The notes under the pieces: generated by a model | The model's input: only the letters and a program-made list of their open reading frames with translations | Databases searched by the model: none | What the model was told of the DNA's origin: nothing | Origin: Mustelus asterias | Lineage: Eukaryota | Length of the DNA: 64,000 nucleotides | Assembly (NCBI RefSeq): GCF_964213995.1 | Contig: NW_027590135.1 | Span: 1,054,001-1,118,000 of the forward strand | Direction: 5' to 3' | Position numbers and translations under genes: made by a program | In this document: piece after piece, positions 1 through 64,000 of the stretch | How the letters are laid out: each line of letters begins with the position of its first letter | Position numbering within the stretch: position 1 is the first letter of the stretch

Positions 1-327
1 CGATGAAGTCAATATGAACGTTATTGAGGTCGTTGCATCGACTGGCCAATAAACAGCTCCGATTGCAGGGTGGTTCAGGCGTTCGACTTGGAATCTAAAT
101 TTGCTTTGATTGGAGACTTTTTTAACCGAAAGAACAGGCCTCAAAACTATTCAATGAGTTCCCAGGCAGGTACAATATTAAAAAGTAGGCTTAAACTGTC
201 CAAAAAGCAAGAGTGAACAATTTCAGTTTACAAAATGTGCGTCAGGACCACCTGGTGTCTGAGGAAATCGGCATCTAAGGCACTTCCGTAATTATAACAA
301 ATGTAAATAGCCATTGCTCAAACATAG

Positions 328-399
328 AGTGGTGAGCATAGCTGCCTTCCAAGCAGTTGACCGGGGTTTGATTCCCGGGTTCGATTCCCGGCCATCGCA
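328..399 (+). pseudogene. tRNA-Gly(TCC) pseudogene; 5' acceptor strand lost, T-arm segment duplicated
   Basis: AGTGGTGAGCATAGCTGCCTTCCAAGCAGTTGACC...GGTTTGATTCCCG GGTTCGATTCCCGGCCATCGCA matches the intact copy at 42162-42233, but lacks the 5' GCGATGGTGGT. Confidence 0.85.
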
Positions 400-709
400 T
401 TGGTAATGTAGTTTTGACTTTATTTTGTGGACAAAATAAAATTCGAACGCGGCAATTGCCGATAAATACGCTTCCCGTTCTAATTTTATTTATTTCGGAC
501 CGAGAATTCGGTTTCAATTTCTTTATCCTGAAAACAATGTTGAAATAGAAGAATAATTGAACAAATGAATTCTCAGTCAAACATAAGGACACCAAATAAA
601 AATAGAGGAACACATGTCAGCTCACACACTGCTCACTGCACAATCCTGGTGCTTGATGAAGTTAACATGAACATCGCTGAGGTGATTACATCATTTTGAG
701 AGATAAGCA

Positions 710-787
710 GCTGCGTTGGCCGAGTGGTTAAGGCGTTGGACTCAAAACCATCGTTTCCTCGCGAAGGTTCAAACTCTGTGCGCAATG
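710..787 (+). pseudogene. degenerate tRNA-Ser pseudogene
   Basis: GCTGCGTTGGCCGAGTGGTTAAGGCGTTGGACTCAAAACC... is homologous to tRNA-Ser(TGA) at 41750-41831; anticodon, variable and T arms decayed. A further 5' fragment lies at about 56-100. Confidence 0.75.
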
Positions 788-1500
788 AGCGAGATTGGAA
801 ATGTTTAATTGGCTTCTCCAGGGCAGCCCATGATATTGAATTCTAATTTACTGTGGGCTCTTTCTATAAAGACCGGGAACTGTGCTGGCATCGACAATAT
901 AGGCCGAATGGCTTCTGTGCTGTAACTTCCATGATAAAAATCATGACTTGAGAAGAAAGAAAAAGAGCAGCACAAGGACAAAACAAGGACTTATTCCAGA
1001 GAAAGATTCTTGTGTCATGACACACAGGACATAAGAAATACACTTCATCAGAATACATTGAATGAATGAGAATTTCAAAATGCTGCTTAGATGATGAAAT
1101 ACCATGTTCATTCAAAACATGCTACAAGCTGGACATTACTGGGCGTTCGGTATTCCTGCTTAAAACAGTTTGGGAATGGAACGAACATGTGGAACATAAG
1201 GAAGAATAATCATATTGGAACGTTAGTAAAAGAGGATTATAGACAATCATAAGACATCAGGAAATTTCATGTTAGAATTAATTTCAAAATGTCTATGGAT
1301 TAAGTGGTCACTCAGCCCAGGACTCCAAACACAAGCGAAAAAATGATGGAATATATTCAGATATTAGAGAATTCTGCAACCAAATCGATGTTGCTTTAAA
1401 ATCTCCCAATAATTTCTGACAGATCCAACCGAGCTGGGCAGCTCATTGAGAAAGCAGCTGTTGCCATGTTTACGCATCAGATGTATTTCTGGCAGAAAAT

Positions 1501-3100: not shown

Positions 3101-3169
3101 TTAGCTGCGAGCAGAAGGATTCAGGGACAGGCAGTGAAGATTTAAGACAGGATGTATAGGAGGCATCGG

Positions 3170-3400
3170 ATCCCAACAGCGCGGAAGGAGGCCACTCGGC
3201 CCAGACATTCTGCGCCGACTCTCCGACGGAGAATCCCTCCCTGCAACCACAAGTAATTACCCTACTAATCCCCCCGACAAGAAGGGTCAATTCAGCCTGG
3301 CCAATCCACCTAATCTGCACATCGTTGGGGATGGGAGTAAACCGGAACACCCGAAGGAAACCCACGCACACGGGGAGAACGTGCAAACTCCACACAGACA
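3170..3400 (-). mobile_element. HE1-like V-SINE, partial
   Basis: GGCCAATCCACCTAATCTGCACATC and GGGAGAACGTGCAAACTCCACACAGACA core. Confidence 0.75.
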
Positions 3401-3578
3401 GGCATCCAAGAATGTTAGTAATGAAATTCAGTTTTCTGCCGGTCACAAACGCTGGGGATTCCCCTTCAATTTGTGGCATCTGGGAATCAGCGAAGCATCC
3501 AAAAATAGGACTGACAATAAATATAACCACGGTAGGTATTCACATGGTACTGACATTCTGTACAACATTGCATCTGTT

Positions 3579-3670
3579 GACCGCATGGCCTAATGGATAA
3601 GGCGTCTGACTTCGGCAATCGTAGTGATGATGCTATCAGAAAATTGCAGGTTCGAGTCCTGTTTTATGCA
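3579..3670 (+). tRNA. tRNA-Arg(TCG) with 19-nt intron (3616-3634); 3' acceptor strand decayed, probably a pseudogene
   Basis: GACCGCATGGCCTAATGGATAAGGCGTCTGACTTCGG [CAATCGTAGTGATGATGCT] ATCAGAAAATTGCAGGTTCGAGTCCTG closely matches vertebrate tRNA-Arg(TCG) once the insert is removed. Confidence 0.85.
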
Positions 3671-5224: not shown

Positions 5225-5307
5225 GGCTCGTTGGTCGAGGGGTATGATTCTCGGTTAGGGTAATATTAGTATGCCAGTGCTTCCGGGTTTAAAACCCGGA
5301 CAAGCCC
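5225..5307 (+). tRNA. tRNA-Pro(AGG) with 11-nt intron (5261-5271); several substitutions, probably a pseudogene
   Basis: GGCTCGTTGGTCGAGGGGTATGATTCTCGGTTAGGG [TAATATTAGTA] TGCCAGTGCTTCCGGGTTTAAAACCCGGACAAGCCC gives 36+36 nt exons of tRNA-Pro. Confidence 0.8.
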
Positions 5308-7901: not shown

Positions 7902-7992
7902 CAACGCTGGTGGGTCTCGAAACCACAACCTTTGAACGGCTAACTTGCTATCATGTAGAAGCCCAACGCGCTTTCCATTGCGCCACAGAGCT
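7902..7992 (-). tRNA. tRNA-Arg(TCT) with 18-nt intron (7938-7955), diverged
   Basis: AGCTCTGTGGCGCAATGGAAAGCGCGTTGGGCTTCTA [intron] GTTCAAAGGTTGTGGTTTCGAGACCCACCAGCGTTG matches the vertebrate intron-containing Arg(TCT). Confidence 0.85.
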
Positions 7993-12058: not shown

Positions 12059-12130
12059 CGCAGAGTGGCGCAGCGGAAGCGTGCTGGGCCCATAACCCAG
12101 AAGTCGATGGATCGAAACCATCCTCTGCTA
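12059..12130 (+). tRNA. initiator tRNA-Met(CAT) with A1>C change
   Basis: CGCAGAGTGGCGCAGCGGAAGCGTGCTGGGCCCATAACCCAGAAGTCGATGGATCGAAACCATCCTCTGCTA; two differences from the vertebrate iMet sequence. Confidence 0.9.
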
Positions 12131-13625: not shown

Positions 13626-13698
13626 AGCAGAAGTGGGGCAGTTGAAGCGTGCTGGGCCCATATCTCAGAGGTCGATGGATCAAAACCATTCTCTGCTA
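13626..13698 (+). pseudogene. degenerate initiator tRNA-Met copy
   Basis: AGCAGAAGTGGGGCAGTTGAAGCGTGCTGGGCCCATATCTCAGAGGTCGATGGATCAAAACCATTCTCTGCTA; flanks homologous to those of 12059-12130. Confidence 0.85.
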
Positions 13699-19869: not shown

Positions 19870-19952
19870 TGTCAGGACTGGAATTTGAACCCAGGCCTCT
19901 AGAGGAGTCTGTGACCTGAACGCAGCAGCTTCGACTACTCGGCCGTCCTGAC
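19870..19952 (-). pseudogene. degenerate tRNA-Leu(CAG)
   Basis: GTCAGGACGGCCGAGTAGTCGAAGCTGCTGCGTTCAGGTCACAGACTCCTCTAGAGGCCTGGGTTCAAATTCCAGTCCTGACA, 83 nt, colinear with vertebrate Leu(CAG). Confidence 0.8.
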
Positions 19953-22360: not shown

Positions 22361-25300
22361 ATAGAAACATAGAAAAACTACAGCACAAAACAGGCCCTTC
22401 GGCCCCACAAGTTGTGCCGAACATATCCCTACCTTTTAGGCCTATCTATTACCCTCCATCCTATTAAGTCTCATGTACTCATCCAGGAGTCTTTTAAAAT
22501 ACCCTATTGAGTTTGCCTCCACCACCACTGACGGCAGCCGATTCCACTCGCCCACCACCCTCTGTGTGAAAAACTTCCCCCGAACGTTTCCCCTGTACCT
22601 ATACCCCAGCACCTTAAACCTGTGTCCTCTCGTAGCAGCCATTTCCACCCTGGGAAAATGCCTCTGAGAGTCCACCCGATCTATGCCTCTCAACATCTTA
22701 TATACCTCTGTTAGGTCTCCTCTCATCCTACGTCTCTCCAAGGAGAAAAGACCGAGCTCCCTCAGCCTATCCTCATAAGGCATGCCACTCAATCCAGGCA
22801 ACATCCTTGTAAATCGCCTCTGCACCCTTTCAATCTTTTCCACATCCTTCCTGTAATGAGGCGACCAGAACTGAGCACAGTGCTCCAAGTGGGGTCTGAC
22901 GAGGGTCTTATATAGCTGCATCATTAACCCCAGACTCCTAAACTCAATCCCTCGATTGATAAAGGCCAGCACACCATACGCCTTCTTAACCACCTCCTCC
23001 ACCTGCGGGGCTGATTTTAGAGCCCCATGGACCCGGACCCCAAGGTCCTTCTGATCCTCTACAGTACTCAGAGTCTTTCCCTTTATATTGTACTCCTTCA
23101 TCCCATTTGACCTGCCAAAATGGACCACTACGCATTTATCTGGGTTGAAGTCAATCTGCCACTTGTCCGCCCAGTCTTGCATCCTATCTATGTCCCTCTG
23201 TAACTTCTGACATCTCTCCAGACTATCCACAACCCCACCAACCTTCGTGTCGTCGGCAAACTTACCAACCCATCCCTCCACTTCCTCATCCAGGTCATTT
23301 ATGAAAATGACAAACAGCAAGGGTCCCAGAACAGATCCCTGGGGCACACCACTGGCGACCGACCTCCATTTAGAAAAAGACCCATCGATACCCACTCTCT
23401 GCCTCCTTTGGGCAAGCCAGTTCTGGATCCACAGGGCAGCAGCTCCTTGGATCCCATGCCCTCTCACTTTTTCTAGAAGCCTTGCATGGGGGACCTTATC
23501 GAACGCCTTGCTAAAATCCATATAAACCACATCTACCGCTTTCCCTTCGTCAATGTGTTTAGTCACATTTTTGAAGAACTCCACCAGGCTCGTAAGGCAC
23601 GATCTGCCTTTGACAAAGCCATGCTGAGTATTCTTGAGCATACTAAACCTCTCTAAATGCTCATAAATCTTGTCCCTCAGGATCTTCTCCATCAGCTTAC
23701 CGACCACTGAGGTTAGACTCACCGGTCGGTAATTTCCTGGGCTATCCCTATTCCTCTTCTTGAAAATAGGAACCACATCCGCAATCCTCCAATCCTCCGG
23801 CACCTCTCCCGTCTCCATCGACGACGCAAAGATCATCGCCAAAGGCTCTGCAATCTCTTCCCTCGTCTCCCACAGTAACCTGGGGTACATCCCATCCGGA
23901 CCCGGCGACTTATCTATCTTGATGCCATTCAAAGATTCCAGCACAACCTTTTTGTTAAAGTCCACATACTCAATCTTTTCAGTCCACCGCAAGCTCGCAG
24001 TACATCCACCCAGGTCCTTCTCTGTGAAAACCGATGCAAAATACTCAGGAAGCACCTCCCCCATTTCTACTGGTTCCGTACAGATTTTCCCACCTTCACC
24101 ATTTATAGGCCCGATTCCTTCACGTCTCATCCTTTTACTCTTCACATATTTATAGAGAACGCCTTAGGGTTTTCCTTAATCCTACCTGCCAAGGCCTTCT
24201 CGTGACCCCTTCTGGCTCTCCTAATTTCCTTCTTTAGTCCCTTCCTACAAGCCATATACTCTTCTAAATCCCTATCTTCGCCAAGCTCTCTGAACCTTTT
24301 GTACGCTTTCCTTTACTTCTCGACTAGGTCCCGCACAGCTTTCGTGCACCACGGTTCCTTTAACCTACAAACTCCTCCCTGTCTGCTCGGAACGTTGTCC
24401 TGTAGAACTCTAGACAGACATTCCTTGAAAAACTGCCACCTCTCTTCAGTACATTTCCCCGAGAATACCTCCTTTCAATTTACTCCACGTATTTGCTGCC
24501 TTATGTCTTCATATTTCCCCTTACTCCATATAAACGCTTTCCTTGCTTGCCTGATCCTCTCTTTTTCCAATGCAAGCATAAAGGAGATAGAGTTATGATC
24601 GCTATCCCCAAGATGCTCTCCCACTGACAGATCTGACACCTGTCCAGGTTCATTGGTCAGTATCAGATCAAGTACAGCTTGTCCACATGCTGTGTCAGGA
24701 AACCCTCCTGAACACACCTAACGAACTCCTCCCCATCCAATCCCCTTACCCTCAGGATATTCCAATGTATGTTTGGGAAATTAAAGTCTCCCATCACAAC
24801 AACTCTGCTCTTATTGCAGCTGTTTCCCTGTCTGCTCCTCCACCTCCCTGTTACAATTGGGCGGCCTATAGAAAACTCCCAGCAAAGTGATCGACCCTGT
24901 CCCACTCCGAACTTCCACCCACAGAGACTCTGTAGACAATCCCTCCACAGCATACACCTTCTCTGCAGCTGTGACACTATCCCTGATCAGCAGTGCCACT
25001 CCACCCCCTCTCTTGCCTCCCTCCCTGTCCTTCCTGAAACATCTGAATCCCGACACCTGGAGTATCCAGTCCTGTCCCCGAGACATCCAAGTCTCCGTAA
25101 TGGCCACCACACCACACTTCCAGGCATCGATCCACGCTCTGAGCTCATCCCCTTTATTCACTATACTCCTGGCATTAAAGTAAACACATCTCAATCCTTT
25201 GGTCTGAGCTCTCCCCTTCTCTATCCCCCGTCCATCCTCCCTCTTGCACCGTCTATAACCCTTCTCTGTTTGCGAGCTAACTTCCTCGCTCCCAGTCACC

Positions 25301-26560: not shown

Positions 26561-26650
26561 TAATTAAATAAATCTCTCACCAGCACTCCTGCCACAAATC
26601 ACTCCCTCTCTGCTTGCTCCAGTGGAACAATGAGCAAAAAAACCCCTACT

Positions 26651-26686
26651 GGGCTCGTCCGGGATTTGAACCCGGGACCTCTCGCG
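26651..26686 (-). pseudogene. isolated 3' half of tRNA-Pro with Pol III terminator
   Basis: CGCGAGAGGTCCCGGGTTCAAATCCCGGACGAGCCC followed by T7 (A run 26636-26642); no 5' half visible. Confidence 0.8.
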
Positions 26687-26976
26687 TTTTAATGCTCGTT
26701 CCACAAATTCTGGTTCCTTTCTCTCATACATAGAAAAATGTTGCCTGGTCTTGAGGGTGTTGACTCTGAGGAGAGGTTGAATAAATGCGGATTGTTTTGA
26801 CTGAAAAGACAGAGGCTGAGGGGAGACCTGATAGAGGTCTACAAAATTGTGAGAGGCATAGACAGGGTGGATAATCAGAGGCTTTCTCCCAGGGTGGAAG
26901 TGTCAATTACAAGGGGCACATGTTCAAGGTGAGAGGGGGAAAGTTTAAGGGAGATGTGTGGGGGAGAATTTTCATG

Positions 26977-30665: not shown

Positions 30666-32903
30666 TTCAGACACTGGAAATCTGCAATTAAAGCAGAAAA
30701 GAAAGCTCAGCCGAGTGGGCAGCATCTGTTTACAGAGAGAAACAGAGTTAGTGTTTCAGGGTTGTGACCTTTCATCAGAACTTGAAAACATAGAAACTCG
30801 GAACAGGAGTCGGCCATTCAGCCCTTCGTGTCTGTGCCATCATTCCATGTGATCATGGCTGATCCTCTATCTCAATTCCATATTCTGTTTTTTCCCAATA
30901 CCCCTTGATGCAATTAAAATCTTTAAAAAATCTCTCTCTCCTTCTTGAACCTATGCAGTGACTTGGTCTTCACAGCTTCTTTGGTAGAGAATTCCATAGG
31001 TTCACCACCCTCTGAGTGAAGAAATTTCCCCTCATCTCATTCCTAAATGGTGTACCCCGTATCCTAAGACTGAGCCCTATTGTTTTACATTCAAAGAACA
31101 AAGAAAATTACAGCACAGGAACAGGCCCTTCAGCCCTCGAAGCCTGCACCGACCATGCTGCCCAATTGAACTAAAACCCCCTACCCTTCCTGGGACCATA
31201 TCCCTCTATTCCCATCCTATTCATGTATTTGTCAAGACGCCCCTTAAAAGTCACTACCGTATCCACTTCCACTACCTCCCCTGGCAACGGGTTCCAGGCA
31301 CCCACTACTCTCTGTGTAAAAAATCTGCCTCGTACATCTTCTTTAAACCTTGCCCCTGGCACCTTCAACCTGTGCCCCCTGGTTATTGACTCTTCCACCC
31401 TGGGAAAAAGCTTCTGACTATCCACTCTGTCCATGCCTCTCATAATCTTGTAGACGTCTATCAGGTCGCCTCTCAACCTCTGTCGTTCCAGTGAGAACAA
31501 ACCAAGTTTCTCCAACCTCTCCTCATAGCTAATGCCCTCCATACCAAGCAACATCCTGGTAAACCTTTTCTGCACTCTCTCTGGCGACCAGAACTGGACG
31601 CAGTATTCCAAATGTAGCCTAACCAACGTTCTATATAACTGCAACATCATATGCCAACTTTTATACTCTATGCCCCGTCCAATAAAGGCAAGCATGCCAT
31701 ATGCCTTCTTCACCACCTTTTCTACCTGTGCTGCCAGCTCTAAGGATCTGTGGACTTGCACACCCAGATCCCTCTGCGTGTCTATACTCCTGATGGGTCT
31801 GCCATTTATTGTATAGCTCCCTCCTGCATTAGATCTACCAAAATGCATCACTTCGCATTTATCTGGATTAAATTCCATCTGCCATTTCTCCGTCCAATTT
31901 TCCAGCCTATCTATATACTGCTGTATTCTCTGACAATGTTCATCACTATCCGCAACTCCAGCAATCTTTGTGTCGTCTGCAAACTTACTAATCAGACCAG
32001 CTACATCTTCTTCCAAATCATTTATATATATCACAAACAGCAGAGGTCCCAGTACAGAGCCCTGCGGAACACCACGAGTCACAAACCTCCAATCAGAAAA
32101 AGACCCCTCCACTGCTACCCTCTGTCTTCTATGGCCAAGCCAGTTCTGTACCCATCTAGCTAGTTCACCTTTGATCCCGTGAGATTTAATCTTTTGCACC
32201 AGTCTGCCATGAGGGACCTTGTCAAATGCTTTACTAAAATCCATGTAGACGACATCCACGGCCCTTCCCTCGTCTATCATTTTTGTCACCTCCTCAAAAA
32301 ACTCAACCAAATTTGTGAGGCATGACCTCCCTCATACAAAACCATGTTGTCTATCGCTAATGAGACTATTCAGTTCTAAATGTGTATAGATCCTATCTCT
32401 AAGAATCTTCTCCAACAATTTCCCTACCACGGACGTCAAGCTCACTGGCCTATAATTACCCGGGTTATCCTTGCTACCCTTCTTAAATAACGGGACCACA
32501 TTTGCTATCCTCCAATCCTCTGGGACCTCACCTGTGTCCAATGAAGAAACAAAGATTTCTGTTAGAGGCCCAGCAATTTCATCTCTTGTCTCTCTCAATA
32601 ATCTAGGACAGATGCCATCTGGCCCTGGGGATTTGTCTACCTTTATGCTTCCTAAAACACCTAACACTTCCTCCCTTGTAATTGCGATTTGTTCTAACGG
32701 GTCTACACATCCCTCTGAGACACTACCAATCAACATGTCCCTCTTCTTTGTGAATACTGATGCAAAGTATTCATTTAGGATCTCACCTACTTCCTTGGGT
32801 TCTCAGCATAATTCCCCTCCTTTGTTCTTGAGAGGTCCGACTCTTTCTCTGACAACCCTCTTGTTCCTAACATATGTATAAAATGCCTTGGGATTCTCCT
32901 TAA

Positions 32904-33026
32904 TGAAGGGGCAGCGCTCCGAACCTAGTGGCTTGTGCTACCAAATAAACCTGTTTGACTTTAACCTGGTATTGCGAGACTTCTTGCTGTGTTTATCCCA
33001 GTCCAACGCCGGCATCTCCACATCAT
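32904..33026 (+). mobile_element. Penelope terminal fragment at a CR1 deletion junction
   Basis: GCTACCAAATAAACCTG...CCCAGTCCAACGCCGGCATCTCCACATC flanked by ATTCTCCTTAA on both sides. Confidence 0.8.
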
Positions 33027-33370
33027 ATTCTCCTTAACCAGTAGTGCAACTCCCCCACCCCTTTTACATCCCCCTCTATCCCGCCTGAAACATCTGTATC
33101 CTGGAATGTTAAGCTGCCAATCCTGTCCTTCCCTTAACCAAGTCTCTGTAATGGCAACAACATCGTATTTCCTAGTACTAATCCAAGCTCTAAGTTCATC
33201 TGCCTTACCTGTAACACTTCTCGCATTGAAACAGATGCACTTCAGTCCACCAGACCCTCTTTGATTATGAACCCCACCCTGCCTGCTGTTTCTCTGGGTC
33301 TTACTGGCCCGACTCTCCGGTTCTCCTTCAGCTAATACACCTTTGCTTTGGTTCCCACCCCCCTGCTAAA

Positions 33371-34288
33371 CTAGTTTAAATCCTTCCATGTGACATTGGC
33401 AAACCTCCCGGCCAGAATATTTGTGCCCTCCCAGTTTAGATGCAACCTGTCCTCCTTATACAGGTCCCATCTGCCCCGAAAGAGACTCCAATCGTCCAGA
33501 TATCTGAAACCCTCCCTCCTGCACCAGCTGTTTAGCCACGTGTTGAGCTGCACTATCTTTCTATCCCTAGCCTCACTGGCATGTGGCACAGGGAGTAATC
33601 CTGTGATTACAACCCTTGAGATCCTGCTTTTTAACTTTCTACCTAACTCCCTAAACTGCTGCTGCAGGACCTCATCACTCCTCCTACCTATGTCGTTAGT
33701 ACCAATATGTACCACGACCTCTGGCTGTTCACCCTCTCCCTTCAGAATGCTTTCTGTCTGTTCAGTGACATCCTGGACCCTGGCACCAGGGAGGCAACAT
33801 ACCATCCTGGAGTCTCTTTCACGTCCACAGAAACGCCTATCTACACCCCTAACTATAGAATCCCCTACAACTATTGTTCTAGTGCTCTTTGTCCCTCCCT
33901 GCTTAACAACAGAGCCAGCCATGGTGCCACTGCTTTGGCTGCTGCTGCTGTTATTCCCTGAAAGCCCATCTCCCCCAACAGTATCCAAAATGGTATACTT
34001 GTTAGAGAGGGGGATGACCACAGGGGATTCCTGCACTGACTGCCTGCCCCTTCTGGCGGTCACCCATCCATCTGCCTGCACCTTGGGTGTGACCACGTCT
34101 CTAAATCTCCTATCTATGATGCTTTCCGCCTCCTTCATGCTCCTAAGGGCATCCAACTGCTGCTCCAACCTATCCATGCGGTCTGAAAGGAGCTGCAATT
34201 GGGTGCACTTCCTGCAGACATAGTTGTCCGAGATGCTGGAAGCCCCGGATCTCCCACATCCCAGAAGTGCAACACTTAACCCCACCAA
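33371..34288 (-). CDS. CR1 ORF1p: Cys motif, coiled coil and SGNH esterase domain
   Basis: CRKC, LEQQLDALR, IVVGDSIVRG, CCLPGA, VVVHIGTNDIG, DRLHLN in a 305-aa open frame; true start uncertain. Confidence 0.85.
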   Translation of the reverse strand: MVGLSVALLGCGRSGASSISDNYVCRKCTQLQLLSDRMDRLEQQLDALRSMKEAESIIDRRFRDVVTPKVQADGWVTARRGRQSVQESPVVIPLSNKYTILDTVGGDGLSGNNSSSSQSSGTMAGSVVKQGGTKSTRTIVVGDSIVRGVDRRFCGRERDSRMVCCLPGARVQDVTEQTESILKGEGEQPEVVVHIGTNDIGRRSDEVLQQQFRELGRKLKSRISRVVITGLLPVPHASEARDRKIVQLNTWLNSWCRREGFRYLDDWSLFRGRWDLYKEDRLHLNWEGTNILAGRFANVTWKDLN

Positions 34289-49864: not shown

Positions 49865-51185
49865 AAATTCATTTGTGGGACATGGGCATCGCTGGCCAGC
49901 ATTTAATGCACATCCTGAGTTGCCCTTGTTCAGAGGACAGTTGAGTCAACCACAGTGCTGTGGCTCTGGAGTCACATGAAGGCCATACCGGGTAAGGACG
50001 GCAGATTTCCTCCCTAAAGTGAACCAGATAGGACCCTTGCTGTTTGTCATTTTCATAAATGACCTGGATGAGGAAGTGGAGGGATGGGTTGGTAAGTTTG
50101 CTGACGACACCAAGGTAGGTGGTGTTGTGGATAGTTTGGAGGGATGTCAGAAGTTGCAGCGAGACATAGATAGAATGCAAGACTGGGCGGAGAAGTGGCA
50201 GATGGACTTCAACCCGGATAAGTGTGTAGTGATCCATTTTGGCAGATCCAATGGGATGAAGCAGCAGTATAATATGAAGGGTACCATTCTTAGCAGTGTA
50301 GAGGATCAGAAGGACCTTGGGGTCCGGGTCCATAGGACTCTTAAATCGGCCTTGCAGGTGGAGGATGCGGTCAAGAAGGCGTACGGCGTACTAGCCTTCA
50401 TTAATCGAGGGATTGAGTTTAGGAGTCGGGAGATAATGCTGCAGCTTTATAGGACCCTGGTTAGACCCCACTTGGAGTACTGCGCGCAGTTCTGGTCACC
50501 TCATTACAGGAAAGATGTTGAAGCCATTGAAAGGGTGCAGAGGAGATTTACAAGGATGTTGCCTGGATTGGGGGGCATGCCTTATGAGGATAGGTTGAGG
50601 GAGCTTGGTCTCTTCTCCCTGGAGAGACGAAGGATGAGAGGTGACCTGATAGAGGTTTACAAGATGTTGAGAGGTCTGGATAGGGTAGACTCTCAGAGGC
50701 TATTTCCAAGGGCTGAAATGGTTGCTACGAGAGGACACAGGTTTAAGGTGCTGGGGGGTAGGTACAGAGGAGATGTCAGGGGTAAGTTTTTCACTCAGAG
50801 GGTGGTGGGTGAGTGGAATTGGCTGACGTCGGTGGTGGTGGAGGCAAACTCGTTGGGGTCTTTTAAGAGACTTCTGGATGAGTACATGGGATTTAATGGG
50901 ATTGCGGGCTATAGATAGGCCTAGAGGTAGGGATATGATCAGCGCAACTTGTGGGCCGAAGGGCCTGTTTGTGCTGTGGCTTTCTATGTTCTATGTTCAG
51001 ATAGGATTTTCTGACAATCGACAATAGCTTCACGGTCATCAGTAGATTCTTAATTCCAGATATTTTTTCATCAAATTTAAATTCCATCAACTGCTGTGGC
51101 AGGATTCGAACCCGGGTCCCCAGAACATTAGCTGAGTTTCTGGATTAATAGCATAGTGATAATACCACTCGGCCATCACCTCACC
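49865..51185 (-). mobile_element. Deu/SacSINE1-like SINE split by a CR1 insertion
   Basis: tRNA-like head at about 51095-51185; body resumes at 50024-49865. Confidence 0.6.
50034..50997 (+). mobile_element. young 5'-truncated CR1 with open RT C-terminus and 9-bp TSD
   Basis: PLLFVIFINDL...KFADDTK...NGIAGYR*; (TTCTATG)n tail; TSD CAGATAGGA at 50025-50033 and 50998-51006. Confidence 0.95.
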
Positions 51186-52196
51186 AGTGTACAAACATCA
51201 TTAACTGGTAGGTAAAGTAATAAAGCTAATAGTCTATGAAGGATTGGAATTTGTGTTACAGTTGCAGAAAACTCTGTTCAGACCCCATTTAGATCACTGT
51301 GTTCATCCCAGGAAGGTTAGATTGGCCTTGGAGTGGGAGCAGCAGAATTTCACCAGTGATGCCAGACTCAAATGATGAGGACAGATTGCAAAGACTAGTC
51401 CTGTAATAACCTGAACATGGAAGATTAAGTGGTGATGTGAGTGAGATGTTTACAATGAATGATTTGATAGGGTGCAGAGAGATAAACTGTTAGCTCTGAA
51501 TGGGGGAACCTCACCGTAAAATGAGATGAGACATTTCAGGGATAATTTAGACCATAAGACATAAGAATATAAGATATAAGAATTAGGCCACTCGGCCGTT
51601 TGAGTCTGCTCTGCCAATGAAGCATAGCTGATATTTTTCTCATCCCCATTGTTCTGCCTTTTCCCCATAATCCCTGATCCCCTTATTTAATTTCAGGGAA
51701 AGCTTCTTGATAGAGGATGGTGGGAATGTTGAATTGTCCACAAACAATTGTTAAAGCTGAGTTTATCAGGAAATTAACAAGCTGAAGATGACAAGCAGCC
51801 AGTAACATGAAGGTGGATAGTCAGAGTTTCTGTAGGTATTTAAACAATAAAAGAGTTAAAGTGAGCATTGGTTCTATCGAAAGTGCATCTGGGGAATTGA
51901 TAATGGAAAATAGGATATTGACAAATGAATTGAACAGGTAGTTTTCATTTGTGTTCACTATAGAGGACACAAGTAACATCCCAAAAATAGCTGGAAATCA
52001 GCAAATGGAAGGGTGGGAGGAACTCAGGAAAATTGCAATCACCAGAGAAAGTGGTATTGAGCAAATTGTCGGATCTGGAGGCTGACAAATCCCTGCGTCC
52101 GAATGGGCTTCACACTCAGGACATGAAATCAGTGGCTAATGAGATAGCTAATGCATTTGTTTTAATTTTGCAAAATTCCCTGGCTTCAGAGAATGT

Positions 52197-52382
52197 GATG
52201 TGGAGATGCCGGCATTGGACTGGGGGTGGGGCGGGGGGGGAGGGGGGGGGGGGTGGTAAGCACAATAAGAAGTCTCACAACACCAGGTTAATGTCCAACA
52301 GGTTTATTTTACTACAAAGTAAACCTTGTGCTACCAAATAAACCTATTGGACTTTAACCTGGTGATGTGAGACTTCTCATTG
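52197..52382. mobile_element. fold-back Penelope-derived element lacking the hammerhead core, 12-bp TSD
   Basis: TSD TTCAGAGAATGT at 52185-52196 and 52383-52394; inverted terminal motifs. A second terminal fragment lies at about 52490-52620. Confidence 0.8.
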
Positions 52383-53074
52383 TTCAGAGAATGTTCCATT
52401 AGAATGAAATATAGAAAGTGTAACACCTTTATTCAAAAAGAGATGGAGAGAGAAAACAGGGAACTACAGGCTGTTACCCTGACAGCTGTTCGACGACGAA
52501 GGGGCAGCCTGTTCCGAAAGCTGGTGGCTTTTGCTACCAAATAAACCTGTTGGACTTTAACCTGGTGTTGTCAGACTTCTTCCTCTGTTTACCCCAGTCC
52601 AACGCCAGCATCTCCACATCTTTTTCTGGGTGGCAGGATATGTCGAATGGTGTATCTGTACCAGGGCCACAACTTTTTACAATTTATAAAAATGACTTTG
52701 ATGAAGGGACTGAAGATACGGTTGTTAAATTTGCTGACAGCATAAAGATTGACAAGAAATTTATTGCAAAGTGTACGTAAGGAGGCTACAAAAGGAAACA
52801 GAAAAGTTACGTGAATTGGCAAAATGTGGCAAATGAGGCAAATTGCGAGGATAAAACAGTGGATGAAAAATTGAGACTTTCAAAGTTGAGATGAATAAGG
52901 TGCCAGCCAGGTACATAGCCACCAGAAATATCCTGGTAGGATATTTAGAGTCACATGGACAAAAATGTCTGTCTCTCCTGCTCTGTTTGATTGATGGATT
53001 GAAAATGTGTCTGCAACTATTTCTGCTCTCTGAGACCGTTGAACTAATAAGATGTCTGTGTGTCAGGAATTGGT

Positions 53075-54275
53075 TGCATTCTTGGACATACACATCTCCA
53101 TCAAGGACGGTCACCTCAGCACTTCACTGTACCGCAAGCTCATGGATAACCTCATGATGCTCCACTTCTCCAGCTTCCATCCTATCCACGTTAAAGAAGC
53201 CGTCCTCTGTGGACAAGCCCTCTGTATACACAGGATCTGCTCAGATGAGGAGTGTTGCAACAGACACCTACAGACGCTGAAAGATGCCCTCATAAGAACA
53301 GGATATGGTGCTCGACTCATCGGTCGACAGTTCCGATGTGCCACAGAAGACAAACACAGGACACGATAGACAGAGTACCCTTCATTGTCCAGTACTTCCC
53401 CGGAGCGGAGAAGCTACGACACCTTCTCCGGAGCCTTCAACATGTCAAGTATGAAGACGAACATCTCGCCAAGGCCATCCCCACACCCCCACTTCTCGCC
53501 TTCAAACAACCGCATAACCTCAAACAGACCATTGTCTGCAGCAAATTACCCAGCATTCAGGAGAACATTGACCACAACACCACACAACCCTGCCACAGCA
53601 ACCTCTGTAAATGTGCCGCATCATTGACACTGATGCCACCATCTCACGTGAGAACACCATCCACTACGCACATGGTACATATTCTTGCGAGTCGGCCAAT
53701 GTTGTCGACCTGATACGCTGCAGGAAAGGATGTCCCAAGGCATGGCACATTGAAAAGACTATGCAGACGCTATGACAACGGATGAATGAACACCACTCAA
53801 CAATCGCCAGGCAGGAGTGCTTCCTTCCTGTCGGGGTACAGTTCAGCAGTCATGGGCATTCAGCCTCTGATCTTCGAGTAAGCGTTCTCCAAGGTGGCCT
53901 TCACGACACATGACAATGCAGAATCACGGAGCAGAAACTGATAGCCAAGTTCCGCACACATGAGTACGGCCTCAACCGGGACCTTGGGATCATGTCACAC
54001 TATCTGTAACCCCCACAACTTGTCTGCGCAAAATATCAATAACTGTCCTGGCTGGAGACAATACACACCTCTTCAACCAGTGCTTGGCCCTCTCTCCACT
54101 TACACTGTCTGTAATTTTAAGACTTGATTACCTGTAAAGACTCGCATTCTAACCATTATCTTGTAAACTGAGTTTGTGCCTGTATATGCCCTGTTTGTGA
54201 ACCCATCTCCTCACTCACCTGAAGGAGCCTGAGTCTCCGAAAGCTTGTGCTGCCAAATAAACCTGTTGGACTTTG
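53075..54275 (+). mobile_element. Penelope-like element fragment (RT C-terminus, GIY-YIG, 3' UTR), disrupted
   Basis: VAFLDIHISIKDGHLSTSLYRK, LHFSSFHP, IHRICS, PLLAFKQPHNLKQ; homologous to 6585-7345; core-deleted hammerhead at 54216-54249. Confidence 0.9.
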
Positions 54276-54791
54276 ACAAAACATCAGTAAACAAATCAGA
54301 AACAGATCAATCCACCGTGACAAGAACACCATCTCTGACTCCCTGCTGCCAGGAAGCAGCCCTTTCACTGATCCTGTGAGCTTATGTGTTAAATCTGTAT
54401 GGTCTTGAGAGAAAAGGGACAATCTTTATCAGAATGGAATAAAGTCTGAGTTTGCACAGATGGTTATTTGCTGCACAAAAAATGGCGCAAATGATGAAAT
54501 TATTGATTAACAACTGAAATCAGAACCTGGGTTCCAGATATTAACTATTAATAAAAAGCAGCAACTTGCATGCATTAAAATACTGCCTGTGACAATACTG
54601 TCGTAATGTGGATGGTGTATTCGCCTGATGAATTCCTCTGTATCTGCTGCGAGACTGATGGGGTCTATTTACTATCGCACACAGGGGGAACTACGGATTG
54701 ATAAAACAAAGCGGGAAACAGCTGGCCTGTGAATAGCACCGCAGCATCTGAGGGACAGACAATAGATCGCCCTTTTCCAGAAAAAGTGAGT

Positions 54792-54807
54792 GGCTCTGAA
54801 AAGAGCC
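54792..54807 (-). promoter_or_regulatory. histone 3' stem-loop (H2A copy 2)
   Basis: Reverse complement GGCTCTTTTCAGAGCC. Confidence 0.95.
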
Positions 54808-54838
54808 TTTGGGGTTATCAGATTAAAGAATGGCCGCT

Positions 54839-55228
<390 letters not shown>

Positions 55229-56336
55229 TTACACAATCTCACAAACACTTTCACAAAGAATGCTGAAATCCACTCCCTTTCGCTTCTCTTATAGCTCCGG
55301 GAGGAATGGAGGTGCGGACATTGCTGATTGGTCACTTTGTTGCTGCCTCTCAGCATCTTGTTCATATGACCAATCAGAAATCTGCTTAACTCACCAATCC
55401 GGAGAGCCCACGGAGTGAGGGCGGAAAATAACGGCGCCAAAATCTCAGATTCCAACCGATTTCATTTCAAACTGTAAAAGCCGCCAAAGCGGAAAAGAAC
55501 AAGAGTTTCGGAAATTATACGAATAGGTAATGGTTAATTAATTTTGAGTAATGTAAGAATCTCCCTTTCTCTCCTTCCCCAGTCTATAGTTAACCTGTAT
55601 CTGGCAGTTTCTGATTTTCAGCCTGGGTTTTTCGGAAAATAAGTCGAAAATAACAAAATTTTCACGATTCATTTTTGAAAAGTTCGCAGATGTATTTATA
55701 AAACAAGAAATACATTTCAAATAAACTCTCAATAATTAACTGTCTAACAACAAAGTGTTTAAAACATCAGTCGGTGTTTGCACCATTTCACATTTTATCC
55801 CAAGTTGCAGATTTGCTTTTAGAATCCTGGATCCATTCGGGGTTAATCTCGGCCCTTTTTAAAACTCGAACTCGCCGCCAGAAAGTCTCATTGACATCGT
55901 TCTGTAAACGGACGGGATGTTCTCCATATTCGTGAGAATCAAGAGGGGAGTGAACATTTTCGGTGTAAATTGACCAGTGCCGAGACGGAGGTTCCTGCAA
56001 CAACCGGGGCGGAGAGGGAATAAACTGATCGATTATTAAGACCAAACTGGAACAGAATTGGAAGCTGACACATTTGCTCCATTCGCTCTCTCTCTCTCTC
56101 TAAAGTCGGGGAAACGGGTCGAAATGGGCCTCTGAGATCTAAGTGCAGAGGCGGTCGGAAACCAATTAATTAATTAATGAAACATTATCAATCAGACGCT
56201 GGGCGATCAACTTGCATTACTCAGTACCTATCATTGATCAACAGTAAAACAACAATTAGATTGTTCGAGACGCTTCAGAGTGAAAGATTAATTGAAACTA
56301 AATGGATGATACAGCTTTTGCAGGGAGATTGTGGGT

Positions 56337-56352
56337 GGCTCTTAAAAGAGCC
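56337..56352 (-). promoter_or_regulatory. histone 3' stem-loop (H2B remnant)
   Basis: Reverse complement GGCTCTTTTAAGAGCC, then ACCCA and AAAAGCTG. Confidence 0.95.
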
Positions 56353-56388
56353 GTTGTGTTTGGGGTGTTTTTCAGTCCATGGGGAGTT

Positions 56389-62250: not shown

Positions 62251-62580
62251 GGGCGGCACGGTAGCACAGTGGTTAGCACTGCTGCTTCACAGCTCCAGGG
62301 ACCTGGGTTCGATTCCCGGCTTGGGTCACTGTCTGTGTGGAGTTTGCACATTCTCCTCGTGTTTGCGTGGGTTTCCTCCGGGTGCTCCGGTTTCCTCCCA
62401 CAGTCCAAAGATGTGCAGGTTAGGTTGATTGGCCAGGTTAAAATTGCCCCTGAGATGCGTAGGTTAGAGGGATTAGCGGGTAAATATGTGGGGGTAGGGC
62501 CTGGGTGGGATTGTGGTCGGTGCAGACTCGATGGGCCGAATGGCCTCCTTCTGCACTGTAGGGTTTCTATGATTCTATGA
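62251..62580 (+). mobile_element. full-length HE1-like V-SINE
   Basis: GGGCGGCACGGTAGCACAGTGGTTAGCACTGCTGC head with B box GGTTCGATTCC; V core; CR1-type (ATTCTATG) tail. Confidence 0.92.
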
Positions 62581-62611: not shown

Positions 62612-64000
62612 CTCACACACTGTATCAGAGTGAGTAAATCCCACACTCACACACGGTATCAGAGAGTGAATAAATCCCACACACACACACTGTATCAGAG
62701 AGTGAGTAAATCCCACACACACACTGTATCAGAGAGTGAGTAAATCCCACACACAAACACTGTATCAGAGAGTGAGTAAATCCCACACTCACACAGTATC
62801 AGAGAGTGAGTAAATCCCACACTCACACACTGTATCAGAGAGTGAGTAAATCCCACACTCACACACTGCATCAGAGTGAGTAAATCCCACACACACACTG
62901 CATCAGAGAGTCAGTAAATCTCACACTCACAAACTGTATCAGAGAGTGAGTAAATCCCACACTCTCACACTGTATCAGAGAGTGAGTAAATCCCACACTC
63001 ACACACTGTGTCAGAGGGTGAGTAAATCCCACACTCACACACTGTGTCAGAGGGTGAGTAAATCCCACACACACTCACACACGATATCAGAGAGTGAATA
63101 AATCCCACACACACAGTATCAGAGAGTGAGTAAATCCCACACACACACACTGTATCAGAGAGTGAGTAAATCCCACACACAAACACTGTATCAGAGAGTG
63201 AGTAAATCCCACACTCACACAGTATCAGAGAGTGAGTAAATCCCAGACTCACACACTGTATCAGAGAGTGAGTAAATCCCACACTCACACACTGCATCAG
63301 AGTGAGTAAATCCCACACACACACTGCATCAGAGAGTGAGTAAATCTCACACTCACAAACTGTGTCAGAGAGTGAGTAAATCCCACACTCACACACTGTA
63401 TCAGAGAGTGAGTAAATCCCACACTCTCACACTGTATCAGTGAGTAAATCCCGCCCACACACACTGAATCAGAGAGTGAGTAAATCCCACACTCACCCAC
63501 TGTATCAGAGAGTGAGTAAATCCCACACTCTCACACTGTATCAGAGAGTGAGTAAATCCCACACTCTCACACTGTATCAGTGAGTAAATCCCGCCCACAC
63601 ACACTGAATCAGAGAGTGAGTAAATCCCACACACACACACTGAATCAGAGAGTGAGTAAATCCCACACTCACCCACTGTATCAGAGAGTGAGTAAATCCC
63701 ACACTCACACACTGTATCAGAGAGTGAGTAAATCCCACACTCACACTGTATCAGAGAGTGAGTAAATCCCACACTCACACACTGTATCAGAGAGTGAGTA
63801 AATCCCACACACACGCACTGTATCAGAGAGTGAGTAAATCCCACACTCACACACTGTATCAGAGAGTGAGTAAATCCCACACACACACACTGTATCAGAG
63901 GGTGAGTAAATCCCACACTCTCACACTGTATCAGTGAGTAAATCCCACACACACACACTGTATCAGAGGGTGAGTAAATCCCACACACACACACTGTATC
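62612..64000. repeat. about 34-38-bp tandem satellite running off the window end
   Basis: Unit CACACTGTATCAGAGAGTGAGTAAATCCCACACT with variable (CA)n; seed units at about 61000-61045. Confidence 0.97.

Follow-up and report, generated by a model that had tools for sequence, protein, structure and literature searches.

A tRNA-Arg(UCG) gene copy with an intron-like insert and a lost 3' end in a shark tRNA/histone cluster

A tRNA-Arg(UCG) gene copy without its 3' end carries a 19-nt insert between positions 37 and 38. It lies in a 64 kb window (the whole stretch of shark DNA that was analysed) in which tRNA and histone genes are clustered. This copy is probably a relic of a gene from a spliced, intron-containing Arg(UCG) family; we infer the splicing, the intact intron-bearing paralogs and the deletion that removed the 3' end. 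The reading of the insert as an intron is based on its exact position, its normal length, the lack of a local source for the inserted bases and a second 37/38 insert in a nearby Pro(AGG)-like gene.

A 2025 paper describes introns as essentially absent from metazoan tRNAs, with the exception of Tyr-GUA, Ile-UAU, Leu-CAA and Arg-UCU. The first-pass annotation had named Tyr(GTA), Ile(TAT), Leu(CAA) and Arg(TCT) as the well-supported intron-containing isotypes of mammals, and the contrast that it drew with the present locus agrees with published statements. Both the splicing machinery and the intron geometry considered here are standard, and it is the isotype that is unexpected for a vertebrate.

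Anatomy and isotype of the gene copy

The features of the gene copy are the following, all on the forward strand:

3579-3670 (+): tRNA-Arg(UCG) gene copy, from sequence anatomy and Rfam RF00005
3579-3615 (+): 5' exon, positions 1-37; matches human chr15.trna4 by eye except at positions 2 and 7 (anticodon left out)
3586-3596 (+): A box of the Pol III internal promoter, consensus-like in a motif scan with what we take to be the consensus
3612-3614 (+): anticodon TCG (Arg; reads CGA/CGG)
3616-3634 (+): insert of 19 nt at 37/38, a putative intron of the TSEN type with the geometry of the human TSEN-pre-tRNA structure paper
3635-3662 (+): 3' exon, positions 38-65, with the anticodon stem 3' strand, variable loop and T arm
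3649-3659 (+): B box, from the motif scan
3663-3670 (+): expected site of the acceptor 3' strand and discriminator, not conserved

The 5' exon contains the acceptor 5' strand, an intact D arm, the 5' strand of the anticodon stem, C32 (3610), U33, the TCG anticodon and G37 (3615), and the 3' exon starts with A38 (3635). The anticodon stem has 5 bp without a mismatch (3605-3609/3636-3640) and encloses 26 nt, a 7-nt loop plus 19. Rfam RF00005 matches positions 3583-3670 with 40.8 bits (gathering score 29) and places the surplus bases in the anticodon loop. ARAGORN at default settings found four other tRNAs in the window and missed this one. With introns allowed and relaxed thresholds, it miscalled the copy as Thr(CGT), in output that was mostly noise (25 and 101 predictions).

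For comparison with human arginine tRNAs we used 26 rows with edited anticodons from supplementary file 5 of PMC6379413 (cited in part). Compared by eye over positions 1-65, the spliced body is identical to chr15.trna4 at 58 of 62 non-anticodon positions, and the mismatches are at positions 2, 7, 45 and 65. This body is shared by seven of the rows used (chr15.trna4, chr17.trna17, chr6.trna3, chr6.trna4, chr6.trna125, chr6.trna115 and chr9.trna5), none of which has an intron and all of which, unlike the shark copy, have complete acceptor stems. We take these seven rows to be mostly UCG genes, as the table edits the anticodon. The intron-bearing human rows, five of the 26, all possess a UCU-type body which differs from the body in the shark copy. 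Judged from the D arm, anticodon stem, T arm and UCG anticodon, the copy belongs to the vertebrate tRNA-Arg(UCG) family; the isotype first assigned to it is thus confirmed by the TCG at 3612-3614 together with the body match to chr15.trna4.

The comparison of the bodies also bears on a switch of anticodon, in which an intron-bearing Arg(UCU) gene became UCG. The two anticodons are one base apart, and anticodon switches explain some of the cases in which yeasts have gained or lost tRNA introns in an isotype-specific manner (PMC4090602, cited in part). However, the D arm, anticodon stem, position 37 and T arm agree with chr15.trna4 and with none of the UCU-type rows, and the same regions differ from the Arg(UCU) gene in the window (nhmmer between both genes, E = 1.4-1.9). 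A switch from Arg(UCU) is refuted by this UCG-type body with G37 instead of A37, and we assign it next to no probability.

Position, source and pairing of the insert

Four other tRNA loci in the window are of use for the interpretation of the insert:

7902-7992 (-): decayed tRNA-Arg(UCU); canonical intron of 18 nt at 7938-7955, G at -3 facing C32; internal control
5225-5307 (+): decayed gene of tRNA-Pro(AGG)-like type; AT-rich insert of 11 nt at 5261-5271, directly after G37
26650-26690 (-): well preserved 3' half of a Pro-like tRNA, from about position 38, followed by a T7 run; without the 5' half
57-810 (+) and 41726-42460 (-): Ser(UGA)/Gly(UCC) block, inverted duplicates, 71% identical with flanks

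The excision of 19 nt from the 26-nt loop is possible in eight placements, two of which (37/38 and 38/39) leave a loop with Y32-U33-R37. Both of these give the anticodon UCG, and only 37/38 retains A38, which the human genes of this body also have. The earlier placement of a 19-nt insert one base 3' of the TCG is therefore upheld, with the insert at 3616-3634. Its length compares with 12-18 nt in all five intron-bearing human Arg rows, 18 nt in the Arg(UCU) gene of the window and 14-60 nt in yeast tRNA introns (PMC10275265, cited in part). The third-last base (position -3) is a G in the insert (3632), in five of the five human Arg introns and in the Arg(UCU) intron of the window. The body of this latter gene is of the UCU type by eye against the human Arg rows; the gene represents the known vertebrate intron family.

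Known Arg(UCU) introns and the insert have in common the 37/38 site, a length of 12-19 nt, a G at -3 opposite C32, a 3-nt bulge ending at position 38 and an imperfect anticodon-intron helix. Furthermore, the first and third bulge bases (C and A) are the same in the human pre-tRNA-Arg structure (PMC10539383, cited in part). The shark copy differs from the known Arg(UCU) intron genes in its body and anticodon, in having G37 and not A37, and in the lack of an acceptor stem.

We found no supported tandem or inverted copy of the insert in the 300 nt of flank on each side, where 62.6% of 1,000 shuffles score equally. Over the 64 kb of the window we also found no further Arg(UCG) gene or remnant. A search of prokaryotic genome contigs with the exact exon-intron junction pattern gave no matches, which is uninformative for sharks.

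The insert could have arisen as a private, random 19-nt insertion into the anticodon loop of a dead, intronless Arg(UCG) gene and never have been spliced. Dead tRNAs in this window do gain insertions: the left copies of the Ser/Gly block are decayed, and the Gly tRNA at 316-398 carries a duplicated T-arm segment. Metazoan Arg(UCG) is described in print as intronless, and this counts against an intron family, as do the single dead copy with no further Arg(UCG) in the 64 kb and the helix and predicted fold described below, neither of which stands out from chance. On the other hand, a private insertion has to fall on one position in about 72 and to provide a G at -3 (27%), which by a hand estimate is the case in roughly 0.4% of insertions. 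The true chance is larger than this single-locus figure, because there are many decayed shark tRNA copies and the locus was chosen for its intron-like look. Moreover, the insert is not a local duplication, unlike the one in the Gly tRNA, and a second 37/38 insert is present in the nearby Pro-like gene. With a body only 4/62 away from the human gene, there was little time for a private insertion. We regard such an insertion as unlikely.

Alternatively, an intron of genuine form may have moved into this copy, or into a small subfamily of dead copies, from another intron-bearing tRNA, for example Arg(UCU), by recombination or gene conversion inside the cluster, while the functional Arg(UCG) genes are intronless. 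A possible donor is close, as the Arg(UCU) gene with its intron of similar length is 4.2 kb away, and both loops start with C-U-U-C. Since vertebrate tRNA introns differ between members of a family (PMC10275265, cited in part), a donor could also lie elsewhere. Against this, the two introns show no significant similarity (16.5% of 5,000 shuffles align as well), and the two exons remain UCG-type as far as the junctions, with G37 in place of the A37 of UCU genes. A transferred intron is in our view quite improbable.

The canonical geometry of tRNA introns, as defined in PMC10275265 (cited in part), is a pyrimidine at position 32 that pairs with a purine as third-last intron base and leaves a 3-nt bulge. 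In the shark copy C32 (3610) can pair with G-3 (3632), which leaves a 3-nt bulge of two intron bases and A38. Positions 32-36 against insert positions -3 to -7 give C-G, a U x U mismatch, U-A, C-G and G-U. The pairs claimed in the first-pass annotation, C32:G(-3) with U34-A, C35-G and G36-U, are thus all present in register, with the mismatch at 33. A Watson-Crick anticodon-intron pair arises in 26.7% of 20,000 shuffled inserts, and the pair together with at least four of the five helix pairs in 5.8%. This helix is weak evidence, barely above chance. The claim that it marks a TSEN substrate as opposed to a random insertion was overstated, with a p of about 0.06 and a predicted fold that favours another register.

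In the minimum-energy fold of the anticodon arm, the probability of the C32:G-3 pair is about 0 and the form with the anticodon-intron pair is 5.6 kcal/mol less stable. In the competing hairpin, the 3' end of the intron is paired with G36, G37 and the two bases at the start of the intron. A gap of this size is matched by 27% of 2,000 shuffled inserts that keep the G at -3, and six of 54 single changes abolish it. Being so ordinary and so easily lost, the gap makes the folding predictions neutral to slightly adverse for an intron. The folding z-scores likewise give no support, at -0.46 (whole precursor) and -0.94 (arm). The only calibration on a known substrate is the Arg(UCU) gene of the window (P = 0.66). 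In metazoan substrates, weak anticodon-intron helices are normal and strengthening them can impair splicing (PMC6614914, cited in part).

Of the tRNA remnants that we examined, three that are not UCU have an insertion, and in two of them it is at 37/38; the third is the T-arm duplication in Gly 316-398. The second 37/38 insertion is that of the gene at 5225-5307, which we take to be of the Pro(AGG) isotype. Its 3' exon start was set by comparison with the Pro-like 3' half at 26650-26690(-), and the bases preceding that half are faintly similar to the end of the 5261-5271 insert. Rfam did not detect the gene at E<=10, and ARAGORN at relaxed thresholds miscalled it as Leu(TAG). The G at -3 faces U32, which allows a wobble pair only, and 55% of shuffles pair there. 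A shared origin of the Arg(UCG) and Pro inserts is not significant (18.1% of shuffles as good). The gene is a second candidate for a non-standard intron isotype, and it is supporting and not decisive because its anticodon-intron position is just a wobble and Rfam does not detect it.

Loss of the 3' end

The first-pass annotation had described the acceptor 3' strand as decayed. This fits a pseudogene, but the loss looks abrupt and not gradual. Identity to the human gene is 1/8 in the acceptor 3' strand and discriminator against 58/62 before them (7/8 versus 4/62 mismatches, Fisher p = 2e-6). In the native register the acceptor stem forms three of its seven pairs, and none of 12 registers gives more than four of seven. 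Such a sharp boundary after the T-stem suggests a short deletion or replacement instead of slow decay. The last base of the T-stem is also the first of a run of four T (3662-3665). T4 runs can terminate Pol III transcription in vertebrates, and this one is likely a premature terminator. The A and B boxes are intact. Without a seven-pair acceptor stem and with an internal T4, the copy is dead. It lacks an intact mature-tRNA fold, in that the acceptor stem, which TSEN54 contacts in the human structure (PMC10539383, cited in part), is lost.

The sharp end of similarity past the T-stem, with both promoter boxes intact, would also be found in a retroposed, 3'-truncated pre-tRNA or in the head of a tRNA-derived SINE, as opposed to a decayed gene copy. 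In line with retroposition, a 7-nt direct repeat adjoins the 5' end and recurs 10 nt beyond the T-stem. As this is equalled by 2.6% of 20,000 random anchors, its status as a target-site duplication is marginal. However, the flanks (159 nt upstream and 287 nt downstream) are single-copy within the window while the SINE just upstream has many copies, and the locus has no A-rich tail. It also sits among tRNA blocks that were duplicated at the DNA level; the Ser/Gly block, of which 98-810 is an inverted paralog of 41726-42460, shows turnover by DNA duplication and decay. An unspliced precursor, moreover, would still require an intron-bearing source gene. We consider an origin by retroposition or from a SINE very improbable.

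If the copy is instead the relic of an intron-containing gene, as we prefer, the internal A and B boxes of an intact paralog would direct its transcription by Pol III. The mature-tRNA body of the transcript would be bound by TSEN, which would cleave at 37/38 with the help of the C32:G(-3) pair and the 3-nt bulge. RTCB would then ligate the exons to an ordinary tRNA-Arg(UCG), and the 19-nt intron would be released, perhaps in circular form. The present copy, which has kept both promoter boxes, has lost its acceptor 3' strand, most simply via a short deletion that brought the T4 terminator against the T-stem. With that strand lost and T4 beside the T-stem, it would give at most a truncated transcript that could not be charged.

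Shark context and comparison with other lineages

The window contains histone genes and about a dozen tRNA genes and remnants, three of which look near intact. Besides the loci given above, the following were annotated:

12059-12130 and 13627-13698 (+): two tRNA genes, which we take to be initiator-Met-like, one on each side of a G/A-rich repeat that includes an assembly gap of 209 bases
19870-19952 (-): decayed tRNA without an insert, presumably Leu(CAG)-like, in which the variable arm is long and the anticodon is CAG
43816-56357: histone cluster with H1, H4, H3 and two H2A ORFs, H1 assigned by its relatives and the others from their translations

For the histone H1 (43816-44451), the closest named relatives are from Mustelus asterias, which accounts for nine of the top 11 rows at 87-94% identity; other sharks and rays come next. 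This supports the chondrichthyan origin assumed in the first-pass annotation. There are six matches to the histone 3' stem-loop, of which four exceed the gathering score.

In sharks, intron-containing tRNA loci have been described as abundant or expanded, together with co-clusters of tRNA and histone genes (Squalomix preprint 10.1101/2025.06.08.657570, cited in part). These loci are from the same clade and the same kind of region, tRNA mixed with histone genes, as the window. The available text of the preprint gives no breakdown by anticodon, and its Figure 3A and supplements may already show Arg(UCG) introns.

We found no description of intron-containing Arg(UCG) genes in vertebrates in the literature searched, the scope of which excluded most subscription papers. 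The available parts of PMC4536317, PMC10485636, PMC8450103, PMC11417395 and PMC11574265 contain no fish tRNA intron data by isotype. The word 'intron' does not occur in the files searched of the supplement to a zebrafish tRNA paper, and the part searched of the tRNAscan-SE 2.0 supplement has no shark or zebrafish entries.

Across 576 eukaryotes, UCG ranks 6th for intron prevalence among 45 anticodons when all genes are counted and 8th for genes with a score >55, and AGG ranks 8th and 9th, respectively (PMC12168002, Figure S7, cited in part). These ranks are the order of the axis labels in the PDF text, which comes without bar values or a split by kingdom, and fungi probably dominate them. Since UCG and AGG are high in this figure, such introns do occur elsewhere in eukaryotes. 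Yeasts resemble the present case in that an isotype has an intron in one lineage which is absent in relatives (PMC4090602, cited in part). The yeast genes are intact and their whole families were surveyed, in contrast to one dead vertebrate copy here. For the persistence of introns in certain isotypes, intron-dependent modification is the leading idea (PMC12168002 and PMC10275265, cited in part).

The gene copy is a hint, short of proof, that the range of spliced tRNA types is wider in sharks than in mammals. That sharks keep or have gained functional spliced tRNA families beyond the four textbook ones of animals, with Arg(UCG) as the minimum and Pro(AGG) as a possible second, is a proposition for which we see the chances as evenly balanced. 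As both UCG and AGG rank high for introns across eukaryotes, these introns could be ancient, retained in cartilaginous fish and lost toward mammals. If true, a vertebrate Arg(UCG) family with an intron, set against an intronless human gene whose body is about 94% identical, would offer a natural test of one tRNA with and without intron, in which modification, level and splicing could be assayed. Such a family would, in addition, call for a qualification of the published near-absence of introns in other metazoan tRNAs and put a date on the gain or loss of introns among vertebrates. Such shark genes may already appear in automatic genome annotation.

Of the two initiator-Met-like genes, the copy at 12059-12130 has a mismatched first pair and the one at 13627-13698 is decayed. 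The window also contains several repeats. Many fragments of LINE-type reverse transcriptases, presumably CR1-like, are found at 22442-24130 (-), 31171-34177 (-) and 50175-50918 (+). A multi-copy SINE with a tRNA-like head is located at 3164-3410, with copies such as 62255-62571. At 62612-64000 there is a tandem array of about 39 copies of a 36-bp unit, which runs past the window end.
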